Assembly: GCA_050950285.1 (NCBI GenBank)
Contig: JBMNHG010000006.1
Span: forward strand, 1-64,000
Source: Kiritimatiellia bacterium
Lineage (GTDB): Bacteria; Verrucomicrobiota; Kiritimatiellia; RFP12; JBMNHG01
Reading direction: 5' to 3'
DNA: 64,000 bases
Part shown: positions 2,380 through 51,675 of the stretch, one piece after another
Layout of the letters: each line of letters begins with the position of its first letter
Position numbering within the stretch: position 1 is the first letter of the stretch
The notes under the pieces: model-generated
Database searches by the model: none
What the model saw: only the letters and a program-made list of their open reading frames with translations
Told to the model about the DNA's origin: nothing
Position numbers and translations under genes: made by a program

Positions 2380-5300
2380 ATGGGACTCCTGCAGTCGATA
2401 CGCCATTGGATGTTCGCGGGCGCCTGCCTTGCTGTGCCGGCGTGCCGCTGCTCTTCTGCCTCGGCGCCTGGGCCGGGACGTCGCCCGGCCTGCGCCGCCT
2501 CTTCCGCGCTCTCGGCGACCGGTTCCGCTCGCTTGCGCCCCTCCGTCAGGGCGGCGCTCTCCGCCCTCCTGGCGGTCGCCACCCTGCACGGCGTCCCGAA
2601 GGTGCCGCCCGGAAGCAACGCCCCGTCTTCCGGCCCTCCCCCGGCGGGCATGCTCTCCGGCGGCCCTCCCGGCGCGGCCCGCGCGCGGCCCCTCCTCCGG
2701 CCCCCGCCTGACCGCCGACCAGTACCGGGCCGGCTTCGCGCTCCGCGCGCGTCGCCACCAATCCGTCGCCCGCCCTGGCCTCCGTTCCGTCGAACGCCGT
2801 CGTCCACGCCCCCTGGACCCGCTACGGGGTGGCCGAGGACACCTTCTGGCTCCCCGCCACCAAACTGGTCCTTCACCCTCGGCACCAACCGCGTCGGGGG
2901 GCTGCACGTCTCCAGCAGCGGAACGCTCTCCTTCGGTTGGCCCAAGGGCTCGCCCCGCGCCCGCCGGATGCCCGACGGCTCGGGCCTCGACTTCCTCGCC
3001 CCCCTGCAGACCTCCCTCGGCATCGTCCCGCCGGCCGGACGCTTCTGGCACGCCCCGACCGCCTCCAACAGCCTGCTCCTCGCCTGGCAGGACGTCTTCG
3101 CCGGCCGCGACGCCGGCCTCCCTGTCACCTTCCAGGCCGAACTCTTCCCCTCCGGCGACTTCGTCTACCGCTACGACTTGTCCCGGCTGTCCGCCACCAA
3201 CGCGCTGCCGGCTACCAACTGGGTCGTCGGCGCCCAGCACGGCGGCGGCGGCGAGACCTTCGCCTTCGGCGGCACGGGCGTCCTCGTCCACGGCCTCGAA
3301 CTCCACTGGCGCGCCTTCGGCATGCTCGACCCGGACGTCGCCGACCACGACGGCGACGGGCTCTCCACCTACGACGAGGTGATGGTCCACGGCACCGACC
3401 CCCGCCTGCCCGACACCGACCTCGACGGCGTTTTGGACGGCGCCGAAGTCGCCGCCGGAACGAGTCCGCTGCTCCGCGACACCGACGGCGACGGGCTCGT
3501 CGACGGCTCCGACCCCGATCCGCTGTCCCCGACGCCGCTCGACGACCTCGACGGCGACGGCATCCCCGATGCCTGCGAGACGGCGAAGTTCGGCTCCACC
3601 AACGCGGTGGACAGCCTCGCCTTCGACCCCGGCGGAACCGGCTTCCCGCTCTCGACGAAGATCGCCGCGGGCATGGACCCCTTCGCGGAGGCTTCCGCTC
3701 CGACGAACCTCGCCTGGAACCTCGCCTCCCTCAAGCTCTTCGACGCCTTCCGGTGCGACCTCCCCGCCGGCGGCACGAACCGGGTGTACGAGCGCACCTT
3801 CACGATCGACCGCGACGGCGGCTGGCAGCAGTACTTCCTCTCCGCCTCCTCGAATGCGCCCGCAGGCTGGTCGCTCGACGGCATGGCGCTCGAGTGGGCC
3901 GACTCCGAAGGCGGAAGCGGCACCGCGACCGCCTCGCCGCCCGACGACAGCCTCTGGCTGCCCGTCTCGACGAACGGCCCCGCGGAACTCACCCTGCGGC
4001 TCCGCGCCACCTCGACGAATTCGACCTGCGCCAGGCCGCTGTACCTGCTGGCCTGGGCGCCGGGCGTCCTCGTGGGCGGCGCCGGGGCGGCGGCGGAAAT
4101 CAACGGCGCGCGCTGCCAGGCCGTCGAATGGACGGGCGGCGGGACGTCGGTCGGCGTCCGGTACGACTTCTCCAACCGCCCCTGCCGCGCCGCGCCCTCC
4201 GAGATGGAGCAGGCCGCGCTCCTCGACCCGTTCCCCGGCGAAGCCCGCCTCGTCTTCACGCCGAACGACGCCTTCACGGGCGGCTCGCTCGCGGCGAAGG
4301 CGCCCGGCATCTACGACGTGCCCGGATGCACGATCGCCCCCGCGCCGCCCCCGGCGCGGCGGGGCGCCCGGGGCGCAGGCGGCCAGGGCGACCCCGGGGA
4401 AGGCCCGGTCGAACGCCTCCTCTTCTTCGATCCCCGCATCGCCTACGGCGACGGCCGCCACGGCGGATGCGGGACCACGCTCTTCTTCGACGCCGCGACG
4501 GGCGACTACGAGCCCGCTTCCGACTACCCCCTCGACAGCCGGTGCCTCCGGGAGGGCTGGCGGCAGGATGCCACGGGCGGCCACCCGTGCGACTGCAGGG
4601 CCGAAATCGGCTACGGCGACCCGGCGCTGGCCGCGTACTTCGACGAAACCGTCGAAGACGACGGCCTTCGCGCCACCGGCACCATCTTCTTCGACGGCAG
4701 GCCGGTCTGGAGCGGGGAGGCCATCCACCGCGTCGGCGAAAGATGCCACGACCCCTTCTACGACGAATGCGGCGACTGCGCGTCCGGATGCGCCGACGGC
4801 GACTGCGACGGCCTCGAAGGCGACGGCCCTCGGCTCGCTCGCCTTCCGCATCCCCCTCGGCATCCCCCGCGACGGCCAGGTCTCCGGCTTCCTCTGGTTC
4901 CGGGCGACGGAGCCGCTGCTCGTCGCGCCCGCCACCTTCAACCTGCTCGCCCGCGACGACGCCGCCGTCGCCGAAAGCGCCGCCGGCGGAACCCGCACCA
5001 TCGCCTGCTCCGACGCCCGAGGCCGCACCGTCGTCGTCGAACCGATCGCCCATGGCGTCCGGATCGCCGTCCGCAAGACCGCCGGCGACGAACTGGAGCA
5101 CGTCTGGGAGATCGCCAACGTCGGCGGGAGCCCGCGCCAAGTCGCGTTCAAGAAGATCAGCCGCCGGGACAACGTCATGCGCGACGTCGTCTACTCATAT
5201 CGTGGGGATGGGGAGTGGGCGTGCTTCGACAACATCGCGCAGACCTCCGAGCAGGTGATCCGCACCGACACGCTCGACGACGGCCCCCACGGCGTCCTCC

Positions 5301-8300
5301 GCGAAGAACGCATCGTGCGCGACGCCGCCGGCGCGATCCTCTCGCGGGACGTCGCCGAGTCCCGGCGCTTCGGCTGCGGGCAGGACGCGACGCTCCGCCA
5401 GACCTACCACGCCACGCTCGGCCTCGAGCCCGACGGCGCGCCCGGCCTGGTCGAAGACCATGCCTCCTACTGGACGGACGACGCCCACCCCCGCCGCAAC
5501 GGACGCCCCCGCCTCGTTTGGGGCGAGTCGCGCCCGTGGAGCTACCAGGCCTGGGACGCCGAGGGCCGCGAAATCCTCCGCCTCGACCCGCTCGACGGCT
5601 CGGCGGCACCCCTGGATTTTGTCGATCAGTCCGATCCGACCGATCTGACCGATCTGTCTGATTTCCCCACCATCACCGCCATCGCCACCGTCTCCGACTA
5701 CGCGCCGCTGGCGGGCGATTCCAATCCGCCCGCCGCCCTCGATTCCGTCCGCACCGAGTCGCGCCACCTCGTCCGCGACGGCGCGGCGACGTGCATCGGA
5801 CGCACCTGGCACGTCCATACCGTCGGCACGGACACGGTGGGCCGCGCCTTCGCGACCGTGAAGACGATCCGCGCCTGCTCCCCGACCGCCGCCTTCGACG
5901 ACCCCGGCAACGCCGTCTCGACCGCCACCCGCTTCGACGCCGACGCCCCCGGCATCCCGCTGCTCCTGCGCGGCCGCCCGCTCGAATCCACCGACGAAGA
6001 CGGCGTGACCACCGCCTGCGACTACGCCCTCGGCGACTACGACCCCGCCACCCGCACCTTCGCCCCCGGCGGTTCTGGAACCGCGCTCCGCACCATCGCC
6101 CGGCGTTCCTATCGGTCCAATCCGTCCGATACGTCCGATCTGACCATCCAAGATTCCGCGCACGGCACGACGCTCTACTCCGCCACCCTCCTTCACGCCA
6201 CCGGTGAGACGCTCGACTGGCAGGCGCACCTCTACGACGACAAGAACCGCCTCCGCTCCACGCTTTACTCCGACGGCTCCACCTCCACCAACGCCTACTC
6301 CTGCTGCCGCCTGCTCTTCACCATCGACCGCGACGGACGGAAGACCGAGCGGCTCGCGCAGACCGGCACAGACCACTTGCGATACGCCATGCTCGACGTG
6401 TCGTTTCCAGAGCTCCCGCAAAACGAAGGCGGTCCTTCCGGCTACTACTTCGCCGTGCCGGGTGCCTATTCATATGCCCGCACCTACGACTTCCGGGCGA
6501 CGGAGCACAGTTTCGATGCGATGGGCCGGCGCATCCGCACCCGCGAACTCGCGACAAACCCCGATCGCTCGCAAGACATCGCGACGCTTCGCAAAACCAG
6601 CTATGGATGGGAAGCGTCGGAAACCACCAGCTACCCCCATGGCATATCCGACTTCCAGGTCCACACCGACGCGCGGGGACTCGTCACCCAAACCGCGTTC
6701 ACGCAAACCCCCGCCGAAACCATCCGGACGACGGACACCTTCGACGGCACCGCGCTTCTGATGCGCACCACCTCGCGCACCGTGCGCGGCGGCGGTTCCA
6801 CCACCCGCCGGGAATGGGACGGCGAATGGACGGAAGCAAGCTCCACCACCACGTTCGCCCCGGACGGGCGGCGAATCGAAATCGCCACCCTTGCCACGTC
6901 CGACGCCCCCATGGTCACAAACAGCGTGGTGGAATACGACTTCCTCGGACGCATCGCCGCTTCCGAAACGCCGCTCTCCCGCACGGAATACGCCTACCAC
7001 GGCAGTTCGCGCCGCGTCGCGTCGGAAACGGAAGTCCGCTCCGGAAGCGTCGCGACGCCCCTCTACGACGAACTCGGCGACGCCATCGGCAGCGTGGCCG
7101 ACGGCGTGGCGTCGATGTCGCTCACCACCTACGAACTGCGCTCCAACGCCTGGTGGCGCGTCGCGACCTCCTTCCTGACGGCCGACGGCCGGACCAACGG
7201 GCTTTCCGTGTCCCGCACGCGCCTGACGGGGCTTTCCAACGCCCTGCGCTCCTGCGTCGAAACCGAGGCCGACGGCGCGACGACGCGCGTCACCACGTCG
7301 TTCGACCCGGTCGCCAAGGTGTCCACGGACACCCTCGAACGCACCGGCATGGCGACCACGACGCGCAAGCGCATGTTCGGGCGGGAGATCGAGGCGACGG
7401 ACGCCGACGGCGTCACCCGCTACAACTACTTCGACCCCTACGGTCGCGTCTACCTCACGCGGGAGTTCACGGGCGAACGCCTCCACTGGCGCACCCTCGC
7501 CATGCGCGACAGCGTCGGCGACGTCTACGCCTCCGCCCGCTTCATCGGCGGCACCCCGCACTGGAACAACGTCGCCCGGTTCAACGGCTTCGACTCGCGC
7601 GGCAACCTCGTCGCCTCCACCAATGAAATGGGGTACGTCACGCATTCGCTCTTCGACTCCGCCGGACGCCTCGCCGCGCGCTTCGGCGCGGCCTACCCCG
7701 TGGCCTACGGCTACGACGCGACGGGACGCCTGAAGTCCCTCTTCACCACGCGCAGCGGCGCAACGTGGGACGTCACGCACTGGAACTACGACCCCGCCAC
7801 GGGGCTGGTCACCAACAAGGTTTATGCCGACGGCTCCGCGCTTGCGCATGGCTGGACGCCCGACGGCCTGCCGGAGCGCACCACCTGGGCGCGGGGCGCA
7901 TGGCGTCATGTCGCGTACAACGACCGGCGACTTCCCGCCGCCGTCTCGTACTCCGACCCCGGCACGCCGGGCCATGAATTGTCCTACGACGCCTTCGGGC
8001 GGCTCGTCGCCGTGGCCGACGCCGCCGGACGCCGCCACGGCTACGCCTACGGCGCTTCCGCCGCCTCGCCGACGAACGAGACCGCCGCCGCGGACTCCGC
8101 CACGAACGCCATCGCCCGAATCCTCGACGCCAACGGCCGCCCGGTCTCCACGACCTTGCGCGTCAGCGGCGCACCGCGCGGCGGAACGTGGCATGCCTAT
8201 GCGGACTCGGGCAGGCTGGCGCACGTCGCCGCCACCAACGCCCAGGGGCGCGGGCTTGTGGCCGCCTACACCAACTTTCGCCGGGCGCTCGTTTGGCCAT

Positions 8301-10067
8301 TCGGTCGAACTGCCCTCCGGCGCGGTCTTCACGCGGACGCTCGCGCGCGACGCCTACCGCCCGAACCGCGTCACCTCCATTGCCCATGCGTTCGACGGCG
8401 TGGAGGTCAGCCGATACGCGCACACCTTCGATGCGCTCGACCGCCTCGCCGCCCGCAACGCCGACGCCTTCGGCTACAACGCCCGCTCGGAAGTCGTGTC
8501 CGCCACCGTCGCATCCAACGAATACGCCTACGCCTACGACCACATCGGGAACCACACGACTTCATCTGTTAACTCCGCCACGACGAGCTTTGACACGGCC
8601 AACGCCCTGAACCAATACACATCCTTCTCAAATCTTGTCCAATCCTGTAATCCTGTCCATGACCTCGATGGAAACATGCTGACCAATGGCGTTTGGTCTT
8701 ACACGTGGGATTGCGAGAATCGGCTTGTCACGGTGTCCTCAAACAACGTCTGCGTCGTTTCCAACGCCTACGACTATCTTTCCCGCCGCGTCCTGAAGGC
8801 CACGCCCGAGGCGGTTCACGCCTTCGTCTATGACGGCTGGAACTTGATCCACGAAACCGTGACGGCGGGCAACGGCGACGTTTCGGAAATCCAGTACTTC
8901 TGGGGGCCCGACCTCTCCGGCACGCTCCAAGGCGCCGGCGGCGTCGGCGGCTTGCTCGCCGTTTCCATCAACGGGCAGTTCTACCTGCCCTGCGTTGACA
9001 ACAACGGCAACATCACCGCCTACATCGACGAGCAAGGCGTCGCCGTGGCAGAATACACTTACGACGCCTTCGGTGGCACCATCGAAAAATCAGGGGCAAT
9101 GGCGGATGCCTTCGCCCACCGCTTCAGCACGAAGTACTATGATGCTGAAACCGGGCTGTATTATTACGGACGCCGTTTTTATTTGCCAACGCTCCACCGC
9201 TGGCTCAACCGTGATCCGATCCAAGAAAAAGGCGGAGCGAATCTGTATGCGTTTTGCAGGAATGATGGAGTGAACGCCGTGGATTTGCTGGGGCTTGCCT
9301 TGTATGCCTTTGATGGAACCTGGAATGACAAGGACAAAATGAAGCGTCCGACCAATGTCGCCAAGCTATATAGAGCCTATACGAAAGAAAAAAGCTATAA
9401 AAAAGGAATCGGAACGTCTAGCGTGACAAGGTTGATTGGTGGAGCGACGGGCGCTGGCGGGAAAAGTCGCGTTAAATCCATGTATGAAGATTTAGTAAGG
9501 ATTTACAACACACCCGATCCAACTGGCGAAAACCAGAAGATTGATGTCATCGGCTTCAGCCGTGGCGCGGCGCTTGCGCGCGATTTCGTGAACTACATCA
9601 ACGAGCAAGGCGGCGTGCCAATGACGACGAAAAGCGGCGAGAAGGTTGTTTGCCCCGTGAAGATTCGCTTCCTGGGCCTTTTTGACACGGTGGCCTCCTT
9701 TGGGATACCCGGAAATGGCGTAAACCTCGGATACGATCTCTCCATCCCCGGCAACGTTGAACATGTTCGCCATGCGATTGCCCAAGATGAATATCGCGGC
9801 ATGTTCCCCCTCTCGCCCGTTTTGGATCCGGACGGGACCGGTGTCGATCCAAGAATCGTTGAACGTCCCTTCCGGGGCTCGCATTCTGATATCGGCGGAG
9901 GATATGACGTTGGAGACCGATCGAATTTCGCCTTGAACTGGATGTATCACGAGGCCATCCGAGTGGGCGTGCCCTTTGGGCCGCTCAATCCCGAAGACAT
10001 CGGCGCAAGCGATCCGGTCATGCACGACACCGGAGGCACGGGGCCCCGGGACATCGATTATCCATAA
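2380..10067 (+). CDS. Giant Rhs/YD-repeat polymorphic toxin (about 2560 aa if frame-corrected) with N-terminal membrane segments, DxDxDG repeats, a Cys-rich linker, an Rhs core and a C-terminal Tle1/DUF2235 phospholipase; several frameshifts
   Basis: Coding frame passes through ORFs 2380.., 3569.. (from ~4826) and 7824.. (from ~8277), with further slips at ~2450-2860. Motifs: DHDGDGLSTYDE, DTDGDGLVDG, YD repeats, HRFSTKYYDAETGLYYYGRRFY...WLNRDPIQEKGGANLYAF...VDLLGL. The tip has AFDGTWN, TNVAKLY, GFSRGAALAR, FLGLFDTV and GSHSDIGGGY. Confidence 0.88.
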
Positions 10068-14899: not shown

Positions 14900-16154
14900 C
14901 TTGCGACCACCCGCGACGGCACGATGTGGGACTCCACGCATTGGCACTACGACCCTGCCACGGGACTGCTCACCAACAAGGTCTACGCCGACGGATCAGC
15001 AGTGTCCTATACGCACAACCCCGACGGCAGGCTTGCCGCCCGCACCTGGGCGCGTGGACTCGCCACAACCTACGCCTACAACCCCGACGGCTTGCTCACC
15101 GCCACCACCTACAGCGACAACACGCCGGACATCGTGCTGACATACGACCTCTTCCAGCGCCCTGCTTCCGCCTCCAACGCCGTCGCGCGATACGCCTACC
15201 AGAACAGCCACCTCGGCACCGCCACCAACGAGACGGCCACGGTCGGCGGCGACACCGCGACCCTGGCCCGCACCCTGGACCACCGCCACCGTCTGGCCGC
15301 ACTGCGTATCGGCAATGCCGCCCCCGTCCACTACGGCTACGACACCGAGAACCGGCACTCCGCCGTCTCCAACACCGCCTTCCGCGCCACCTACGCCTAC
15401 ACCTCCGACGGTTGGGATGCGGGCTATTCGGTGGCCTTGACGAATGGCGTCGTACTTGCCCGCAACCTGACCCGCGACCCCTACCGCCGCAGTCTGGTAA
15501 AAGCCATCACCAACAGCGTCAGCGGCGTGCCGTACAATCCGCTGGCCTACACCTACGACCTGCTTAACCGTGTCACGTCACGAAACGCCGACACCTTTGA
15601 TTACAACGCCAGAAGCGAAGTCACGGCGGCCATCATCCAGCCCGCCCACACCAACCGCTACGCCTTCGACAACATAGGCAACGCGCTGTGGGCCTCGCTT
15701 AACTCCGTCACGAACATCTACACCGCCAACGAACTGAACCAGTATTTCCTGATTTCCAATCATGTCAATCATGTCAATCCTGTCCAAATTTCTCCCGTAT
15801 ACGATTTAGACTGCAATATGACATGGGACGGGCGTTTCAGCTATGCGTATGACGCCGAGAACCGCCTCGTCGCCGCCTATTCCAACGGCCTGTGCGTAGT
15901 CTTCAACGCCTACGATCATCTTAGCCGCCGCGTGTTGAAAATCTCACGCGGAGGCGTGGAGACGCGGAAATTTGTCTACGACGGCTGGCTGCCGGTTCTC
16001 GAAATCGTCGCCACCGCCTCGGGCGTGACCACAAATCATTACGTGTGGGGACGCGATCTATCTGGAAGCATGCAAGGCGCGGGCGGCGTCGGCGGCTTGC
16101 TGGCGGTACAGATGGGCGGCGCGTGGCACTTCCCGTTCTACGACAACAACGGAA
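14900..16154 (+). pseudogene. Orphan Rhs core fragment (5' exon of the group II intron)
   Basis: Near-identical in long blocks to 12460-13630. It ends at FYDNNG immediately before the intron GTGCG. Confidence 0.85.
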
Positions 16155-18086
16155 GTGCGCCAAGCGAAGCTCGGCGCTTCTTGCGGGGTGGAAGTCCCCG
16201 CCGAGTAAGGACCAGCCATCCACTCGTACCGAGTGTTGGCACTATGGAAGAGGAGTCGAATCCGAATGAAGTAGTGTAAGCGTACACAGGGAACTTCGCA
16301 GGCCGCAGGGAGGATGCACCCTCCCGAAGCGGTTCAGCCCCGTTAATTGATCATGCGCAGGGCGACATGTTTGCCGACATGGAAGCCAGCAACAAGGACG
16401 CGCAACCGGCTTGCGTCCGGTGACTGCGCCGGGGTCTACGGCGCGCGGCATGCGGAGAGAGAAGCGAACGGGAACTTGGGAGACCCGCCGCCGTCCGCGT
16501 CCGCGAGGGCGCGGTAGCGGCCGCCGAGCCGGAAGGGAAGGCGGCGCGACGCGGCGGCGGGAGTCAGACCGCCCCATAGTACTCCGGGACGGGCGAGCCG
16601 GTCACACGGGGAAGGGGGCGGCGGGGCTGCGAAGCCCGCAAAGGAAACAGGAAAGATGGACACGACAGGCTGTCAAACACTGCAAACCTCACTGCGGGGA
16701 ATAGCGGATCGGGCGCGACGCGACCCGAAGGCGCGATTCCGCGACGTGTACAGGCTGCTCAACGAGGCGAACCTGCGCGAGTGCTTCCGGGCGTTGCGCA
16801 GGGACGCCGCGCCGGGGATTGACCGGGTGACGTTCGACGACTACGAACGCGACCTCGACGCCAACCTCGCGGCGCTGGTCGAGCGGCTCAAGCACAAGCG
16901 GTACCACGCCCGACTGGTGCGCAGGGTGAACATCCCGAAGGGGGGCGGGAAACTGCGTCCCCTCGGAATCCCTGTGCTGGAGGACAAACTTCTGCAAATG
17001 GCCGTGGCGAAGGTGCTCACGGCGATCTACGAAGAGGACTTCCTGCCGGCGAGCCGGGGCTACCGTCCCGGCGGCGACGCCCGCGAGGCCAGCCGCGAAT
17101 GGGCGGCGAGGCTCGGCGGGGGGAGCTATGCGTGGGTGGTCGATGCGGACATCAAGGGCTTCTTCGAGCACGTCGATCACGACTGGATGCTCAGGATGCT
17201 GGAGCTTCGCATCGACGACAAGCCGTTTCTGCGGCTGGTGCGCAAATGGCTCAAGGCGGGGGTGCTGGAAACGGACGGACGGGTGCTGCATCCGACGGAG
17301 GGGACGCCCCAAGGCGGGGTGGTCTCGCCGGTGCTGGCGAACGTCTACCTGCACTACGCGCTCGACCTCTGGTTCGACCGCGTGGTCAGGAGGACGACGT
17401 CGGGCCGCTGTGTGATGCTGCGCTACGCCGACGACTTCGTGGTCGCCTTCGAGCGGCGCGAGGACGCGGAACGCTTCCTTGGGGAGCTGCCCGGGCGACT
17501 GGGCAAGTTCGGCCTGGAGCTCTCGGGGGAGAAGACGCGGCTGGTGCGCTTCGAGCGGGGCAACCCGTCGGGCGACAACGGCGGCTTCGACTTCCTGGGG
17601 TTCCAGTACCACTGGGAGCGTACGCGAAACGGACGCTGGAAGGTGCAGCGCCGGACGGCTCCGAGCCGTCTCCGGCGGTCGGTGGAACGCTTCGCCGAGT
17701 GGATCAAGGCCAACCGGGGCGGACGCCTGCCCGTTCTCATGGAACGGCTGGGGCGCAAGCTCGCGGGGTACTGGCAGTACTACGGCGTGACGGGCAACGG
17801 GCGCAGCCTGTGCAAGTTCTGGAGGCAGGTGGTGGCTGGGCTCTACAAGTGGCTCAACCGCAGAAGCCAGAAGCGGGGCTTGACCTGGGTCCGTCTCAAT
17901 GCGATCCTCAAGCGCCACGGGGTGCCGGGACCGCGGATCACCGAGAGCGGGCAGATGCTGTTTTCCTTCATGGGGGCGCGTTGAAGACCGAGTGCAAAGC
18001 GAGCAGTCCCGAAGAGCCCGGTGCGGGAATTCCGCACGCCGGGATCCGTGCGGGGGGCGCCCGGCAACGGGCGTCCCTACCGCGAT
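16155..18086 (+). mobile_element. Group II intron (IIB-like, no endonuclease domain)
   Basis: 5' GTGCG at 16155. Domain V GAGCCCGGTGCGGGAATTCCGCACGCCGGGATC at about 18014-18046. Domain VI ends CCCTACCGCGAT at 18086 with the bulged A at -8. It encodes an RT/maturase. Confidence 0.93.
16656..17984 (+). CDS. ltrA: Group II intron reverse transcriptase/maturase
   Basis: APGIDRVT, RPLGIP, DADIKGFF, GTPQGGVVSPVLANVYLH, RYADDF, FDFLGF, and maturase X domain GYWQYY...WLNRRSQ. Confidence 0.95.
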   Translation: MDTTGCQTLQTSLRGIADRARRDPKARFRDVYRLLNEANLRECFRALRRDAAPGIDRVTFDDYERDLDANLAALVERLKHKRYHARLVRRVNIPKGGGKLRPLGIPVLEDKLLQMAVAKVLTAIYEEDFLPASRGYRPGGDAREASREWAARLGGGSYAWVVDADIKGFFEHVDHDWMLRMLELRIDDKPFLRLVRKWLKAGVLETDGRVLHPTEGTPQGGVVSPVLANVYLHYALDLWFDRVVRRTTSGRCVMLRYADDFVVAFERREDAERFLGELPGRLGKFGLELSGEKTRLVRFERGNPSGDNGGFDFLGFQYHWERTRNGRWKVQRRTAPSRLRRSVERFAEWIKANRGGRLPVLMERLGRKLAGYWQYYGVTGNGRSLCKFWRQVVAGLYKWLNRRSQKRGLTWVRLNAILKRHGVPGPRITESGQMLFSFMGAR

Positions 18087-18932
18087 ACGCACTGTGGACC
18101 TCGCTTAACGCCGTCACCAACATCTACACCGCCAACGAACTGAACCAGTATTTCCTGATTTCCAATCATGTCAATCCTGTCCAAATTTCTCCCGCATACG
18201 ATTTAGACGGCAATATGATATGGGACGGGCGTTTCAACTACACGTATGATGCGGAAAACCGCCTCGTCGCCGCCTATTCCAACGGCCTGTGCGTAGTCTT
18301 CAACGCCTACGACCACCTGAGCCGCCGCGTGTTGAAAATCTCACGCGGAGGCACGGAGACACGGGGATTTGTTTATGACGGCTGGCTGCCGGTTCTCCGA
18401 AATCGTCGCCACCGCCTCGGGCGTGACCACCAACCACTACGTCTGGGGCAAAGACCTATCCGGCACGCCTCCAGGGCGCGGGCGGCATCGGCGGACTCCT
18501 GGCGGTACAGATGGGTGGCACATGGTACTTCCCGTTCTACGATAATAACGGCAACATCACAGCCTATGTTGACGAGACCGGCGCCATCGTGGCCGAGTAC
18601 ACCTACGACGCCTTCGGGCGCACCATTGAGGCTACCGGCTCCATGGCCGACGCCTTCCTCCACCGTTTTTCGACCAAATACTACGATGCCGAAACCGGGC
18701 TCTACTACTACGGCTACCGGTTCTACGCGCCCAAACTGATGCGGTGGATCAATAGGGATCCGATTCAAGAGAAGGGTTTCGTTTTCAGTTTGTATAACGA
18801 GAAAATTTCAGACGCTGAGACACTGGCTATTCCCTTCCCAGATTTCGAAACATATTATTTGTACAATGTAGAAGAATTGACGAAAGGTGGGAATTGCAAT
18901 CCAGTTATGTTTATCCTTAACAGTCCACTAAA

Positions 18933-20949
18933 CCGAAGTTCCAGCGGCTCTTTCATGCCCGAAACGGCCATATTTTCTTGATTTAGCGGCATTCCGGCAC
19001 CCCTAAGGCAGCAAAATCCGTTCCATTTGCGCCCATGTAATTGTTAATAACTTTTTTGACGAAACACCATTTTTACGCTTGCATGAGACTGAAAGGTCTG
19101 CTAAATTGAGCCCATGTACATTGACATCGTGCCGAACCGCAAATCCCCGCCCGCAATCCTGCTGCGCGAGAGCTGCCGCGAGGGCGGGCGCACCGTCAAG
19201 CGCACGCTTGCCAACCTGTCGATGCTGCCGCCCGAGGCGGTGGCGGCGCTGCGCGCCGCGCTCAAGGGCGAGCATCTTGTGGAGGCCGACAGCCTTTTCG
19301 AGATCGAGCGATCCCTGCCATGCGGCCACGTCAGGGCCGTCCGCACGGCAATGAGCCGGCTCGGCATGCGGGATCTGGTGTCGTCCAAGCCCTGCCCGGA
19401 GCGCGACATCGTGCTGGCGATGATAGCCCAGCGCATAATAGAGCCGGGCTCGAAGCTGGAGACGGTCTCCCTGTTCGGGGACTCCACGCTCGCGCAGGAG
19501 TTCGGCGTGCAGGACGTGGACGAGAACGACCTTTATGCGGCGATGGACTGGCTCGCGGCCCGCCAGCCCTTCATCGAGCGCAAGCTGGCCGGGCGGCACC
19601 TTGCCGAGGGGGCGACAGTCCTGTACGACGTATCGAGCAGCTCCTACTACGGCAAGCAATGCCCCCTGGCAAAGCGCGGATACAACCGCGACGGCCTCAA
19701 GCTGCCCGGCATCGTCTACGGGCTTATGACCGATACCGACGGCAGGCCGGTCGCGGTGCGGGTGTATCCCGGCGACACCGCCGACCCGGTGACGGTGCCG
19801 GACCAGATCGACCGGCTGCGCGGGGGCTTCGGCATAGCGCGGTTCGTCTTCGTGGGTGACCGCGGCATGCTGACGAACACGCAGATCGACCGCCTGCGGC
19901 AGCAGGAGGGCTGCGGCTGGATATCCTGCCTGCGAAGCTCGGACATCCGCAGGCTGCTGGAGACACGCGATCCCTCCGGTGCGCCGCTGTTCACGCAGGG
20001 CAACCTGGCCGAGATCATCCATCCCGACTTCCCCGGCGAGCGGCTGGTGGCCTGCTACAACCCGGTGCTGGCGATGGACCGCGCCCGCATGCGCGGCGAG
20101 CTGCTGGAGTCCACCGAGAAGGATCTCGTCAAGCTGCGCGACCATGTGGGGCGCCGGAGGAGGAAACCCCTGACGGCAGCCGAGATCGGCGTCAGGGCGG
20201 GACGCGTGATCAACCGCTACAAGGTCGCCAAGCACTTCAGGCTGGACATCGCCGACAACCACTTCGGCTGGGAGCGCGACACGGAATCCATCGCCCGCGA
20301 GGCCGCCCTGGACGGCATCTACGTCGTGCGCACCAGCGAGACGCCCGAGTCGCTTTCCGCAGAGGACGCGGTGCGCGCCTACAAGAGCCTGGGCGACGTC
20401 GAGCAGGCCTTCAGGACCTTCAAGGGCGTCGATCTGCTCGTCCGCCCGATCTACCACCGCCTGGAGGACCGCGTGCGCGCGCACGTGCTGCTGTGCATGC
20501 TCGCCTATTACGTGGAATGGCACATGCGCCAGGCCCTGGCCCCGCTGCTCTACGCCGACGAGGAACTGGAAGCCGCCCGCGCCAGCCGCGATCCCGTCGC
20601 CAAGGCGCAGCCCTCGGAAAACCTCAAGCGCAAGCGCGCCCGGAAACGCACGCAGGACGGACTGCGGCTCCGGCGCTGGGACGGGCTGCTTGGCGCGCTA
20701 TCGACACAGGTGCGCAACACATGCTGTTTCGGAGAAGGCAGAACCGCCGTGCGCTTTACCCGCGACACGATGCCCAACGCCTTCCAGGCCAAAGCCTTCC
20801 GACTGCTCGAGGCGGACCACGCCTGCTGGCGGAACAACAAGGGCGTTTCCATGTAAGCGGAACGGGAAAATGGCGCCAGAAAGCGCGTAGAATGCTTGCC
20901 TGCAAGGGTTTGCGAATGAGCAGGCTGTTGGAAATCGCTGGAACTTCGG
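18933..20949 (+). mobile_element. IS1634-family insertion sequence
   Basis: Perfect 14-bp terminal IR CCGAAGTTCCAGCG (18933-18946 and 20936-20949). 6-bp target duplication ACTAAA (18927-18932 and 20950-20955). Confidence 0.95.
19114..20856 (+). CDS. IS1634-family DDE transposase
   Basis: MYIDIVPNRKSPPAILLRES, LYDVSSSSY, RGYNRDG, VFVGDRGM, LDGIYVVRTS, VEQAFRTFK...RPIYHR...RVRAHVLLCMLAYY. Confidence 0.95.
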   Translation: MYIDIVPNRKSPPAILLRESCREGGRTVKRTLANLSMLPPEAVAALRAALKGEHLVEADSLFEIERSLPCGHVRAVRTAMSRLGMRDLVSSKPCPERDIVLAMIAQRIIEPGSKLETVSLFGDSTLAQEFGVQDVDENDLYAAMDWLAARQPFIERKLAGRHLAEGATVLYDVSSSSYYGKQCPLAKRGYNRDGLKLPGIVYGLMTDTDGRPVAVRVYPGDTADPVTVPDQIDRLRGGFGIARFVFVGDRGMLTNTQIDRLRQQEGCGWISCLRSSDIRRLLETRDPSGAPLFTQGNLAEIIHPDFPGERLVACYNPVLAMDRARMRGELLESTEKDLVKLRDHVGRRRRKPLTAAEIGVRAGRVINRYKVAKHFRLDIADNHFGWERDTESIAREAALDGIYVVRTSETPESLSAEDAVRAYKSLGDVEQAFRTFKGVDLLVRPIYHRLEDRVRAHVLLCMLAYYVEWHMRQALAPLLYADEELEAARASRDPVAKAQPSENLKRKRARKRTQDGLRLRRWDGLLGALSTQVRNTCCFGEGRTAVRFTRDTMPNAFQAKAFRLLEADHACWRNNKGVSM

Positions 20950-21447
20950 ACTAAATGGTTGGGATGACAGGGGACTGGATATTACGCTTGAGACCGGCAA
21001 CAATGGTGCAAATGACCTTAACAACAAGTATCATCAAGCGGTTTGTGTCGACACGTGGGTTAATGGCAATGGAAGGAATGCCTGTAACGAACAAAACAAG
21101 TGGCAATGTTGTCATTTGGGGAAGAGATGCTTTTCGTTTGGCAAGGTACCAGGATTAGAGGGCGGTCAACTGCCCCATTTTTCATCGAGTTGGCTGGGCT
21201 GGAGCAGTACTGTTGTTGGCGCAATTCTTCAGGGAGAGATTTACTCTCTTGCCGCCGTTCCGGGGGCAACGATTGATCGACGTTACGTCACAACAATGAC
21301 ACAAGACTTCAACTGGGAGCGCTACATGTGGCGAAGTCGAATGTACACACGCGATGCGTATTCTGTTGCACGGCATAATTGCCGGAAGTATTCCCAATGG
21401 GAATTTAGAGATGCGCCATATCATTGGTAATGTAGGAGATGCTACTA

Positions 21448-48235: not shown

Positions 48236-48266
48236 TTCTTTCGTGCGATAGATGACGCTTGCACGC

Positions 48267-49385
48267 TTACTCCGAAGGCTTCTTGCCGGACGCTTCTTCC
48301 TTTTTGGCGGCAGCCGCCCGCTCCTGCATGTACCCCACCAGTTCCGACGTGTCGTAGTCAATAAAGGCGTTGTTGCGTATTGCCTCATATGTGTAGCCTG
48401 ATGCACCCGGGTGGATCCCTAGTTGCCTTTCATGCGGCTTCCATGCCTCATAAAACCCTTCCTGTATCTCAGATTCGGGAAACGACCCCGTTGGGCGGGA
48501 CGGTTTCAAGGGGAAGCGTCCGATCGTCTTCCTGAATATCAGAAGGTTTTGAACGCGATCCATCATCGTGCTTTCATAGCCCATGATGCAAAACATATAA
48601 TGGAGTTTCTGATTCCACTTTGTGGCAAGCGTGTAGGGACGAGGCGAGATCTCATCCTCGCAATAGAACGCGACTTCTTTGGAAAAGTTTTTCCCCTCCG
48701 AGAAATAGTGCGGATAATGCCCCTCTTTTTCCTTGTACGCAAGCCACGCCTTCCGAAAATGCCCATGCCATTCGACCGCCAGATCGTCCTTTGTCTTCGC
48801 ACGGTACTGGTGCGGGGACTCCTCGTTCAAAATGTTGCGACGCACATGCAGCTTGCTTTCCTCTGTCTCAAACCGGGCGAGGCGCGCCTCGATTCCCTCC
48901 ACGGAGAAATCGAGATCCGCAATCAGGTGCCCAATGGGAATGCAGGCCAGGTGCTCGACCCGCCTTCTGATGGCATGGTTCCCATAGCCGCCGGGACGTC
49001 CCGCCCAGTCGGAAAAATCGAGCAGCCGGTCGGCCTGGCTCGCCCGTTCCCCGGTGCTCGCAGGCGAAAGAATGCGCAGGGCCTCCTCATCCACGGCCTT
49101 GACAAGCTCCAAGCCGAAATCGCGCTTCGCCTGTTCAAGTTGGATGCGCTTCGTGGATTCCCGGGGGAGCCAGTCCACCCAGCATTGGGAATGGATTTTC
49201 GGCGCGTCCCACCGGTTGGATTGCGCAACGGCGAAAAACCCCCGAAAGCCGGAGTCGGCAAGCGTTTTCCGCTGGATTGCGAGCGCCTTCATCTCTTCTT
49301 CATAGCCGGGCTCGGCCGATGCGGCGCAAAGCGGGGGCAATGCGGCGAGCGCGGTGCAAACGAGTGCTTTCAACAGATGTTTCAT
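48267..49385 (-). CDS. Secreted protein, putative immunity paralogue C
   Basis: Signal peptide MKHLLKALVCTALAALPPLCAA. Tandem paralogue of the next two genes. Alternative start at 49409. Confidence 0.8.
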   Translation of the reverse strand: MKHLLKALVCTALAALPPLCAASAEPGYEEEMKALAIQRKTLADSGFRGFFAVAQSNRWDAPKIHSQCWVDWLPRESTKRIQLEQAKRDFGLELVKAVDEEALRILSPASTGERASQADRLLDFSDWAGRPGGYGNHAIRRRVEHLACIPIGHLIADLDFSVEGIEARLARFETEESKLHVRRNILNEESPHQYRAKTKDDLAVEWHGHFRKAWLAYKEKEGHYPHYFSEGKNFSKEVAFYCEDEISPRPYTLATKWNQKLHYMFCIMGYESTMMDRVQNLLIFRKTIGRFPLKPSRPTGSFPESEIQEGFYEAWKPHERQLGIHPGASGYTYEAIRNNAFIDYDTSELVGYMQERAAAAKKEEASGKKPSE

Positions 49386-49411
49386 GAAGCGAGGTGTTGC
49401 CGTTTGCATGT

Positions 49412-50554
49412 CTATTCAGAAGGCTTCTTGCCGGACGCTTCTTCCTTTTTGGCGGCAGCCGCTTGCTCCTGCATGTACCCCACCAGTTCCGACGTGTCGT
49501 AGTCCATGAAAGCGTTGTTGAGAATCTGGGTGTAGCTTCTTGCAGCTCCGCTTCCTTTTTTGCCAAACTTTTTCTCATGCGGCATCCATGCTTCATAGAA
49601 AGCTTCGCGAACTTCTTCCCCCTCAAACGACCCCAATGGACGGGACGGTTTCAGAGGAAACCGCCCGATCATCTTCCTGAACAACAGGAGGTTATGGACA
49701 CGATCCGTGATCGCGTCGGTTTTCCCACGGACACAAAATAGAAAATGACGTTTCTGGCTCCATTTTGTGGCAAGCGTGTAGGGGCGAGGCGAGGATTCAT
49801 CCTCACAATAGAAGGAGATATGGCGTGGGAGATCTTTGCTTTCTTCATGATCGTAAGGGTAGCGCCCCCTTTCATCCTTGAATGCAAAAGCCGCCTTCCG
49901 GAAATGTCCATGCCATTCGACCGCCAGATCGTCCTTTGTTTTCGCACGGTACTGGTGCGGAGCTTCCTCGTTCAAAACATCGACCTGCATGCGCACCCAG
50001 CCCTGCTCCGTCTCAAGCCGGGCAAGGCGCGCCTCGATTTCCTCCACGGGAAAATCCAAGTCCGCAATCAGGTGCCCAATGGGAATGCAGGCCAGATGCT
50101 CGACCCGCCACTTGATGGCGAGGTTTCCATAGCCGCCGGGGCGTCCCGCCCAGCCGGAAAAATCGAGCAGCCGGTCGGCCTGGCTCGCCCGTTCCCCGGT
50201 GCTCGCAGGCGAAAGGACGCGCAGGGCCTCCTCCTCCACGGCCTTGACAAGCTCCAGGCCGAAATCCCGCTTCGCCTGCTCGAGTTGGATGCGCTTCGTG
50301 GATTCCCGGGGGAGCCAGTCCACCCAGCATTGGGAATGGATCTTCGGCGCGTCCCACCGGTTGGATTGCGCAACGGCGAAAAACCCCCGAAAGCCGGAGT
50401 CGGCAAGCGTTTTTCGCTGGATTGCGAGCGCCTTCATCTCTTCTTCATAGTCAGGCTCGGTCGATGCGGCGCAAAGCGGGGGCAATGCGGCGAGCGCGGT
50501 GCAAACGAGTGCTTTCAACAGATGTTTCACGAAGCGAGGTGTTGCCGTTTGCAT
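49412..50554 (-). CDS. Secreted protein, putative immunity paralogue B
   Basis: Same N-terminal part as copies A and C with a divergent central region. Start is ATG 50554 or GTG 50530. Confidence 0.8.
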   Translation of the reverse strand: MQTATPRFVKHLLKALVCTALAALPPLCAASTEPDYEEEMKALAIQRKTLADSGFRGFFAVAQSNRWDAPKIHSQCWVDWLPRESTKRIQLEQAKRDFGLELVKAVEEEALRVLSPASTGERASQADRLLDFSGWAGRPGGYGNLAIKWRVEHLACIPIGHLIADLDFPVEEIEARLARLETEQGWVRMQVDVLNEEAPHQYRAKTKDDLAVEWHGHFRKAAFAFKDERGRYPYDHEESKDLPRHISFYCEDESSPRPYTLATKWSQKRHFLFCVRGKTDAITDRVHNLLLFRKMIGRFPLKPSRPLGSFEGEEVREAFYEAWMPHEKKFGKKGSGAARSYTQILNNAFMDYDTSELVGYMQEQAAAAKKEEASGKKPSE

Positions 50555-50556
50555 GT

Positions 50557-51675
50557 CTACTCCGAAGGCTTCTTGCCGTCCGCCTCTTGTTTCCTGGCGG
50601 CAGCCGCTTGCTCCTGCATGAACCCCACCAGTTCCGACGTGTCGTAGTCCATGAAGGCGTTGTTGAGAATCTGGGTGTAGCTTCTTGCAGCCCCGCTTCC
50701 CTTTTTGCCAAACTTTTTCTCATGCGGCATCCATGCTTCATAGAAGGCTTCGCGGACTTCTTCCCCCTCAAACGACCCCAATGGACGGGACGGTTTCAGA
50801 GGAAACCGCCCGATCGTCTTTCTGAACAACAGGAGGTTTTGAACGCGATCCATCATCGTGCTTTCATAGCCCATGATGCAAAACATATAATGGAGTTTTT
50901 GATTCCACTTTGTGGCAAGCGTGTAGGGACGAGGCGAGATTTCATCCTCGCAATAGAACGCGATCTCTTTGGGAAAGTTTTCCCCCTCCGCGAAATGATG
51001 CGGATAATGCCCTTCTTTTTTCTTGTACGCAAGCCACGCCTTCCGAAAATGCCCATGCCATTCAACCGCCAGATCGTCCTTTGTCTTCGCACGGTACTGG
51101 TGCGGGGACTCCTCGTTCAAAATGTTGCGACGCACACGCAGCTTGCTTTCCTCTGTCTCAAACCGGGCGAGACGCGCCTCGATTTCCTCCACGGGAAACT
51201 CCAGATCCGCAACCAGGTGCCCAATGGGAACGCAGGCCAGATGTTCGACCCGTCTTCTGATGGCATGGTTTCCGTAACCGCCGGGACGTCCCGCCCAGCC
51301 GGAGAAATCGAGCAGCCGGTCGGCCTGGCTCGCCCGTTCCCCGGTGTTCGCAGGCGAAAGAATGCGCAGGGCCTCCTCATCCACGGCCTTGACAAGCTCC
51401 AAGCCGAAATCGCGCTTCGCCTGTTCAAGTTGGATGCGCTTCGTGGATTCCCGGGGGAGCCAGTCCACCCAGCATTGGGAATGGATCTTCGGCGCGTCCC
51501 ACCGGTTGGATTGCGCAACGGCGAAAAACCCCCGAAAGCCGGAGTCGGCAAGCGTTTTTCGCTGGATTGCGAGCGCCTTCATCTCTTCTTCAAAGTTGGG
51601 CTCGGTCGATGCGGCGCAAAGCGGGGGCAATGCGGCGAGCGCGGTGCAAACGAGTGCTTTCAACAGATGTTTCAT
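50557..51675 (-). CDS. Secreted protein, putative cognate immunity paralogue A
   Basis: ATG 51675 lies 25 nt after the stop of the 1438-aa gene, and a signal peptide is present. Confidence 0.8.
   Translation of the reverse strand: MKHLLKALVCTALAALPPLCAASTEPNFEEEMKALAIQRKTLADSGFRGFFAVAQSNRWDAPKIHSQCWVDWLPRESTKRIQLEQAKRDFGLELVKAVDEEALRILSPANTGERASQADRLLDFSGWAGRPGGYGNHAIRRRVEHLACVPIGHLVADLEFPVEEIEARLARFETEESKLRVRRNILNEESPHQYRAKTKDDLAVEWHGHFRKAWLAYKKKEGHYPHHFAEGENFPKEIAFYCEDEISPRPYTLATKWNQKLHYMFCIMGYESTMMDRVQNLLLFRKTIGRFPLKPSRPLGSFEGEEVREAFYEAWMPHEKKFGKKGSGAARSYTQILNNAFMDYDTSELVGFMQEQAAAARKQEADGKKPSE

Follow-up and report, generated by a model that had tools for sequence, protein, structure and literature searches.

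In the Kiritimatiellia bacterium assembly GCA_050950285.1, a group II intron lies between two Rhs exons that come from different positions of two different toxin cassettes. We analysed the first 64,000 nt of contig JBMNHG010000006.1 (the window). This contig is called C6 below, and other contigs of the 12-contig, 4.05-Mb assembly are cited as C2, C3, C7, C8 and C12. The 5' exon, cassette B, ends at the position of residue 871 of the protein encoded by a neighbouring cassette (cassette A), and the 3' exon, cassette C, starts again at residue 715. We think it likely, with some reservation, that this arrangement arose by recombination between two intron copies residing at non-equivalent sites. 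The structure now present at the window locus is most likely a real but inert recombinant.

Two Rhs cassettes joined at one intron

The features that define the locus are listed here. A slash within a motif or between residue numbers marks the point of intron insertion.

14930 to 16154, plus strand: Rhs orphan cassette B, 5' exon (tblastn with the cassette A protein; Pfam RHS_repeat)
15668 to 15680, plus strand: empty FDNIG/N target site (GACAACATAGGCA) within cassette B (sequence; alignment of six copies)
16155 to 18086, plus strand: group II intron of 1932 nt, GTGCG...CGCGAT, one of eight full-length genomic copies with 97-99% identity
18087 to 18932, plus strand: Rhs cassette C, 3' exon (tblastn pieces in three frames; alignment)
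18541 to 18553, plus strand: empty YDNNG/N site (GATAATAACGGCA) in cassette C (sequence)

Cassette B corresponds to residues 464-871 of the cassette A protein with 88% identity (tblastn). Its frame is open from 14822, which gives 451 open codons 5' of the intron, and it ends one base into the Asn codon that follows ...FPFYDNNG; the terminal sequence at 16142-16154, GACAACAACGGAA, holds the YDNNG codons. The 3' flank opens with ACGCACTGTGGACC at 18087. Sequence of the same class (ACGCGCTGTGGGCC) is also found in cassette B, where it starts at 15681, after GACAACATAGGCA and 474 nt upstream of the intron. The start of the 3' exon, A/CGCACTGTGGACC, encodes N-ALWTSLN at the residue-715 position, and N-ALW is preceded by FDNIG both in cassette B and at 24 other empty TAGGCA sites genome-wide. 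From this position cassette C runs beyond the core-end motif, ...RWINRDPIQEKG, which directly precedes its toxin tip (tip C), and into the tip. The closest paralogue of cassette C is C8:748626-747779 (92.6%).

A first-pass annotation of this locus had placed the 5' flank at a YDNNG site and derived the 3' flank from an FDNIG site about 470 nt further upstream in the core. It had also described the 3' flank as another allele than 15681-16154 with one 9-nt unit fewer, and had assigned the exons to different positions of two cassettes. Our comparison bears this out, with an offset of 474 nt and a junction at 871/715. The segment copies at 15681-16154 and 18087-18551 are only 87.8% identical to each other, whereas they are 95.1% and 95.0% identical to their respective closest paralogues, so the two exons represent different cassette lineages. 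In an alignment of six copies the 3' segment has one 9-nt unit fewer. Tandem duplication of a single cassette was considered as the source of the repeated segment and is ruled out by the same values, each segment being closer to other paralogues than to its counterpart.

Both flanks are unique in the assembly, with best other matches of 90.3% and 92.6%. Pfam RHS_repeat was detected in both exons and in the neighbouring cassettes, and Tle1-like and Tlde1 tips occur nearby. The 474-nt core segment has more than 35 matching stretches over at least 8 contigs, and the Rhs cassette load is unusually large for a 4-Mb genome.

Anatomy of the intron

The sequence from 16155 to 18086 is a complete group II intron. 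Its recognised parts are as follows.

16191 to 16444, plus strand: ribozyme domains D1 to D4 (5' part), Rfam RF02005
16656 to 17984, plus strand: intron-encoded protein of 442 amino acids, reverse transcriptase (RT) plus maturase, in domain 4 (Pfam)
18012 to 18086, plus strand: D5 and D6, Rfam RF00029, full model length, ending exactly at 18086

The full RF02005 covariance model (1-225) is matched with 106.1 bits against a cut-off of 49 bits. The RF00029 match scores 36.2 bits, which is under the 40-bit cut-off (E 6e-5). In its alignment, D5 is opened by GAGCC, the bulged branch-point A lies at 18079, and 18086 is the last intron base. Two observations fix the intron limits at 16155 and 18086: a head-to-tail pair of copies at C8:823031/823032 reads ...CGCGAT/GTGCG... 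across its junction, and public unitig-style contigs break at 16154/5 and at 18078-18086.

The intron-encoded protein matches RVT_1 (E 4e-33) and GIIM (20.8 bits, under the 23-bit cut-off), and these were its only Pfam matches; no endonuclease domain was found among them. A 442-aa longest frame with the same start is present in five of the eight full-length copies and is open in the window copy. The occurrence of the intron at multiple sites with tuned target pairing suggests that it is retromobile.

Target recognition by EBS1

Exon-binding site 1 (EBS1) and its partner, intron-binding site 1 (IBS1), were located as follows.

16149 to 16154, plus strand: IBS1 (ACGGAA), the last six bases of the 5' exon, pairing at 4 of 6 positions with its own EBS1
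16372 to 16377, plus strand: EBS1 (TGCCGA), in the loop of a hairpin (CATG with CATG) at 16366-16381

EBS1 variants in this lineage are tuned to codon variants of one protein motif. We aligned nine genomic copies with six metagenome relatives and scored the 14 that had a readable 5' exon. Intron positions 218-223 covary with exon bases -6 to -1 and form 74 of 84 pairs, a value that none of 5000 re-dealings of the exons among the copies matched. The segment is the 9-nt loop of a consensus hairpin of the Rfam model. All six pairs form between TGCCTA and TAGGCA, between TTCCGT and ACGGAA, and between CGAGGA and TCCTCG, and five of six form between TCCCGA and CCGGGA. The window copy, with TGCCGA facing ACGGAA, is the weakest of the 14 (four of six, with a mismatch at -2). 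At the empty site at 18541-18553 in cassette C, ACGGCA would pair at five of six positions with the EBS1 of the window intron, as scored for the copy at C3:573935, and so better than its actual exon.

A different EBS1, TTGCGT at 16411-16416, had been suggested in the first-pass annotation. It does pair at five of six positions with ACGGAA, but its identity as EBS1 is refuted. TTGCGT is unchanged in 12 of the 14 relatives whatever their exon, its 47 of 84 pairs are equalled by 3742 of 5000 shuffles, and in the Rfam alignment it lies within the 3' strand of a consensus helix. When D1 was scanned for EBS2 against exon bases -7 to -18, the only hit was an invariant stretch (79-85), which does not covary.

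All eight Rhs 5' flanks in the genome end with GAYAAYAWHGGHA, that is, with D-x-x-G/N. Seven of the eight visible non-intron 3' flanks begin with A, the exception being a T in the Ser-repeat flank after C8:823032; therefore the intron splits the Gly-Asn pair as GGN A/AY. The genome contains 83 matches to GAYAAYANNGGNA, eight of them followed by an intron, and TAGGCA sites are empty in 25 cases and occupied in three. Each Rhs core holds the D-x-x-G/N motif several times (in the cassette A protein at 713, about 761 and 871), and dozens of paralogous cassettes contain it.

Intron copies in the genome

The genome has eight full-length intron copies and about four partial ones. Their flanks were mapped in cassette A protein coordinates, with the following values for six copies.

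C3:573935, colinear: 871/873
C7:30361, colinear: 713/715
C2:684460, colinear: 871/873
Window copy on C6, non-colinear: 871/715
C8:817490, non-colinear: 713/873
C2:688273, non-colinear: 713/763

This tabulation, which the first-pass annotation had proposed, gave three colinear and three non-colinear copies with the window copy included, and the rest have other flanks. The other arrangements are the head-to-tail pair, with the Ser-repeat site after its second copy, one copy with an internal deletion and one truncated at a contig end. No 5' flank matching the 763-type 3' flank is present anywhere in the assembly, and there are four 713-type 5' flanks and two 715-type 3' flanks. Re-pairing the assembled copies cannot make all of them colinear, so some of the mismatched junctions are real, unless the assembly misses copies.

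Some copies have further peculiarities. The 5' exon of C2:684460 has only about 30 nt of Rhs sequence. At C8:821093-824963 (L004, L008) two copies stand exactly head to tail with 96.6% mutual identity. The first fits its YDNIG 5' exon at six of six positions, two of them G-U pairs; the second, whose EBS1 is of the FDNIG type, directly precedes the Ser-repeat site (tcctcgtcctcgag). Such a precise tandem has no simple explanation by homing or crossover, and template switching or a circular form are guesses. At C3:579713-580409 (L010, L021) an ORF-less, internally deleted copy joins positions 1-558 to 1814-1932. Its EBS1, TTCCGT, is the sole perfect match to ACGGAA, the exon end of the window copy.

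Proposed recombination between intron copies and other explanations

At the window locus, exon identity switches exactly at the intron. G at position 222 marks the window EBS1 as YDNNG-type, whereas the copies at FDNIG sites on C7 and at C2:688273 carry TGCCTA. The native FDNIG-site copy on C7 matches the intron plus 269 nt of adjoining 3' exon with 96.8% identity over 2226 nt. A crossover within the short similar exon motifs was considered and is ruled out, because the last six exon bases are of the B type and EBS1 is of the YDNNG type; the same two features place the crossover inside the intron, beyond position 223. Compared with its nearest relative, the window copy has one difference in positions 1-779 and 12 in positions 780-1600. 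Among the eight full copies there are 37 informative sites, and 294 of the 666 site pairs fail the four-gamete test. Neighbouring informative sites are more compatible than permuted ones (P = 0.016). The intron copies are mosaics that have clearly exchanged segments.

The following course of events would account for the locus. The lineage, which has RT and maturase and lacks an endonuclease, would find its DNA target by EBS1 pairing with the six bases before the split in the Asn codon. As the motif recurs, same-sense intron copies lie at non-equivalent places in the genome. A copy at the YDNNG site of cassette B and a copy at the FDNIG site of cassette C would then have recombined inside the intron, downstream of EBS1, to give B(464-871)/intron/C(715-tip). 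Since the break in the Asn codon comes after the first base in every insertion, any such join is in frame at the joint. The event may have been a deletion between direct repeats in neighbouring cassettes; alternatively, it may have been a reciprocal exchange with C8:817490, whose flanks (713/873) are the mirror image. The two forms fit equally well, and the hints given by nearest paralogues are near ties. A deletion may have removed a toxin tip and its immunity gene, as the first-pass annotation supposed. Its proposal that two intron copies at similar codons recombined, here those of D-x-x-G/N, is the simplest account of the locus, and the additional non-colinear copies, the EBS1 types and the mosaicism argue for it.

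Several results weigh against this account. A triplet breakpoint scan with the window copy as child gave a best p of 4.4e-4, uncorrected for about 2400 tests, which is not significant. The 3' half of the intron does not specifically resemble FDNIG-site copies, and only three clustered sites are common to it and C8:823032. No bridging contig was found among the short public unitig-style contigs of four runs, which are interrupted at the intron ends; in all four, depth is almost nil over the opening 120 nt of the 3' exon (bin 18091-18207). These contig-level metagenome runs contain 0.52-0.71 of the words of the query, 55% of which is the intron alone, and no RNA run containing the stretch turned up in the same search. 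With the bin at 18091-18207 nearly uncovered, the metagenome runs show neither linkage across the junction nor its absence. Outside the genome, a single chimeric metagenome copy (L089, described below) could itself be a mis-join. The reciprocal flanks of C8:817490 are also what an assembler swap inside the repeat would be expected to produce, neither locus is more than 17 kb from a contig end, and the short contigs C7 and C12 end in or near introns.

These last points bear on an assembly mis-join inside the approximately 1.9-kb multi-copy intron, for example by a downstream swap with C8:817490, which we regard as unlikely though deserving of serious attention. Cassette B would then really continue into an exon of the post-YDNNG type, and cassette C would follow an FDNIG 5' exon. 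The flanks on C6 (871/715) and at C8:817490 (713/873) are exact mirror images, so that one swap makes both loci colinear, and the two introns are identical over positions 1-779 except at position 142, which leaves little for an assembler to use. Contigs C7 and C12 are small and rich in Rhs sequence, and end at introns or in them. The closest paralogue of the C8 5' flank (C2:217896-219997) directly adjoins that of the C6 3' flank over its initial 474 nt (C2:219998-220477), but this argument depends on near ties (93.4 versus 93.2 and 93.1%). The assembly resolves, inside contigs, 10 other full-length copies (about 2 kb, 97.5-99.4%) of an insertion sequence (IS), 4-kb Rhs paralogues at 96-98% identity and the head-to-tail intron pair. 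Resolution of such long similar repeats implies reads well over 2 kb. Moreover, twelve sites separate the C6 and C8:817490 introns in positions 780-1568, and swaps are unable to make all copies colinear.

The mismatch could also have come from intron mobility instead of recombination between two resident DNA copies, which seems to us rather improbable. In one route, the intron would have reverse spliced incompletely into the FDNIG/N site of cassette C, an unspliced donor would have been reverse transcribed into its YDNNG 5' exon, and repair would have used Rhs homology. In another, an RNA already joined by trans-splicing would have been retro-inserted. The RT frame of the window copy is open, as is the 442-aa longest frame in five of the eight full copies, and the lineage has clearly moved among sites with a retuned EBS1. 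Joining of different genes at the RNA level has been documented for Ll.LtrB (PMC7947834; PMC6248898). However, several unusual steps would be needed, and flank conversion is normally absent in bacterial retrohoming (PMC2504315). The mosaic intron copies already show ordinary DNA exchange, which is sufficient.

Probable decay of the chimeric product

The first-pass annotation had also stated that the exons would splice in frame. The joined exons do read ...FPFYDNNG-N-ALWTSLN, in frame at the joint, but this frame stays correct for about 103 codons only. Alignment with five other copies reveals a single additional C in cassette C at both 18397/8 and 18468/9, and Rhs homology in the 3' exon passes through three frames. 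At 18468 the public contigs are of two kinds, some with the additional base and some lacking it. The extra base at 18397 is missing from the covering contigs in three of the four runs (in the fourth, X3, depth is 0). These public contigs may derive from paralogues.

Downstream, the tip is interrupted.

18933 to 20949, strand not assigned: 2017-bp IS element inserted into the cassette C toxin tip (Pfam DDE_Tnp_1; DDE transposase ORF 19114-20856)
20950 to 21430, plus strand: rest of the cassette C toxin tip, 3' of the IS, 99.6% identical to C8:747779-746817

The IS is bounded by a target duplication, ACTAAA, at 18927-18932 and 20950-20955, and its empty site is visible in the C8 paralogue (C8:7477xx). 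The stretch C8:747779-746817 is continuous with the paralogue of 18087-18932. The genome has 12 other stretches of this IS at 97.5-99.7% identity, 10 of them full-length (about 2 kb), and several contig ends fall within or beside its copies.

Cassette B lacks an N-terminal delivery region and begins at the residue-464 position. Across the nine intron copies with a readable frame, the open frames of the 5' exons measure 40-728 codons, which is orphan size. A spliced Rhs protein with a duplicated 157-residue core segment that delivers tip C, that is, a working gene, has in its favour the in-frame junction and an intron with all catalytic parts and an open RT frame. We nevertheless consider it very improbable. 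Its 5' exon is an orphan fragment of 451 open codons, EBS1 and IBS1 pair at four of six positions with a mismatch at -2 (the poorest of 14), two 1-nt insertions lie in the 3' exon (with public contigs that have and lack the 18468 base), and a 2-kb IS splits the tip. The two frameshifts, the IS, the orphan status of both exons and the poor EBS1-IBS1 pairing make a working product unlikely, and the chimera at the window locus is probably inert, silent and decaying.

Elsewhere in the window, a frame change occurs between 8128 and 8295 in the large Rhs gene at 3569-10067, whose tip is a Tle1-like phospholipase. Its 94% paralogue on C8 lacks one C that is present here at 8279, in AACTTTCGCC. There are thus three single-C insertions in Rhs sequence within 10 kb (8279, 18397 and 18468), which are either real decay or a systematic consensus error. 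Three tandem 1145-nt units with 72-93% identity occupy 48253-51301 of the window and match three successive minus-strand frames of 380-446 aa.

Relatives outside the genome

The only other genome of the family (92% complete, 170 contigs) gave no intron match. A metagenome scan with the last 24 intron bases found 100 stretches, of which 80 were retrieved. Most of the 80 are distant introns that share only the D6 end, and the 3' flank of the window copy is in none of them. Among copies at least 85% identical to the intron, L059, L074 and L089 have D-x-x-G-type 5' flanks and L033, L034, L055 and L093 have N-VTEY-type 3' flanks (examples are LDANG/N-VTEYLSAEG and ...DQPG/N-MTGDG); in L025, L035, L071 and L078, of the same identity class, no such D-x-x-G or N-VTEY flanks were found.

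A second target class was observed in the close relatives L078, L089 and L071. The L078 site, tcgtcctcgtcctcg/tcctcgagcc, is perfectly matched by EBS1 CGAGGA. L089 has the same 900-nt 3' flank as L078, and on its 5' side lies the beginning of a small gene with YD repeats (...YVYDANG). As assembled, L089 is chimeric, with a YVYDANG 5' flank and the 3' flank of the Ser-repeat site natively occupied by L078.

The first 22 bases of the intron are common to introns in many phyla. In species-representative genomes, 53 of 79 such relatives follow ...GTTA or ...GTTG and not a Gly-Asn codon pair, so the Rhs-homing lineage looks like a retargeted branch of a broader clade. In two loci from Luteolibacter-labelled metagenome-assembled genomes (L143, L166), ...YYGYRY/ precedes a more distant intron that also shares these 22 bases. 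The YYGYRY motif resembles another conserved Rhs core-end motif, and a short Rhs-like stretch precedes it.

Comparison with known systems

In lactococcal relaxase genes, the exons are of different lineage and switch exactly at the Ll.LtrB site, which was attributed to DNA recombination, and chimeric mRNAs arise through Ll.LtrB trans-splicing (LaRoche-Johnston, Bosan and Cousineau 2020, PMC7947834). Like Ll.LtrB and Ef.PcfG, the present intron is a sense-oriented mobile intron at one conserved codon position of a homologous gene family, and here too the exons differ in lineage and switch at the intron (PMC7947834). The relaxase genes have one site per gene and their chimeras are colinear, whereas the Rhs motif recurs within the core and across dozens of cassettes (PMC7947834). 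Unlike Ll.LtrB relaxases, Rhs joins can therefore duplicate or delete core segments (871/715, 713/873, 713/763). The host genes here are polymorphic toxin cassettes, examined at the DNA level, whereas RNA trans-splicing was shown in the relaxase case.

Promoter-less Rhs fragments with toxin tips lie downstream of main rhs genes, and recombination fuses the core to a new tip (Koskiniemi et al. 2014, PMC3967940). Orphan arrays and core-tip fusion by recombination are common to that system and the present one (PMC3967940). The main/orphan system uses homology of the Rhs core, whereas the shared sequence here is the 1.9-kb intron, which could join unlike or out-of-register exons.

Copies of the Thermosynechococcus group II introns reportedly occupy different, unrelated sites through diverged EBS sequences, whereas here every variant corresponds to a codon variant of a single motif within a single gene family. 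Both have many closely related copies per genome (Mohr et al. 2010, PMC2882425). RmInt1 of Sinorhizobium meliloti has RT and maturase without a DNA-binding/endonuclease domain and reaches high copy number (PMC4075523, PMC4615759). The protein of the present intron is similar in domain content, with no endonuclease domain among its Pfam matches, and no EBS2 was found in the present intron.

Intron-driven exon shuffling is already published for relaxase genes, and fusion of main and orphan rhs genes is also known. A search of open-access papers and preprints found no description of group II introns with Rhs, YD-repeat or polymorphic toxins. What looks new here is an intron lineage adapted to a protein motif that recurs in a toxin family, with joins between non-equivalent positions and a constant codon phase.

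RmInt1, too, selects its targets mainly by RNA-DNA pairing, and its home site is an insertion sequence. Swapping of C-terminal tips is how Rhs and other polymorphic toxins diversify, and the known route needs homology of the core. An intron that seeds an identical 1.9-kb sequence in constant codon phase would supply such homology wherever it is inserted, and recombinants at the intron would stay in frame once spliced. A more far-reaching idea, which we put forward as doubtful speculation, is that the Rhs-homing intron acts as a universal in-frame adaptor for toxin diversification, linking any core to any orphan tip. Fusion would occur by DNA recombination within the intron or, with the DNA left unaltered, by trans-splicing of a main Rhs transcript to that of an orphan consisting of a short 5' exon, the intron and a tip, such as C2:684460. 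If this were true, the intron would persist in the arrays because the cell can use it to sample a repertoire of silent toxins.

The interest of these findings lies in the behaviour of the intron family and not in a single decayed locus. The lineage clearly illustrates, in nature, how EBS1 is retuned to the different codons of a single protein motif, and the probable recombination between its copies would extend intron-driven exon shuffling from relaxase genes to a large, fast-evolving family of weapons, in which different positions of a repeat protein may be joined.

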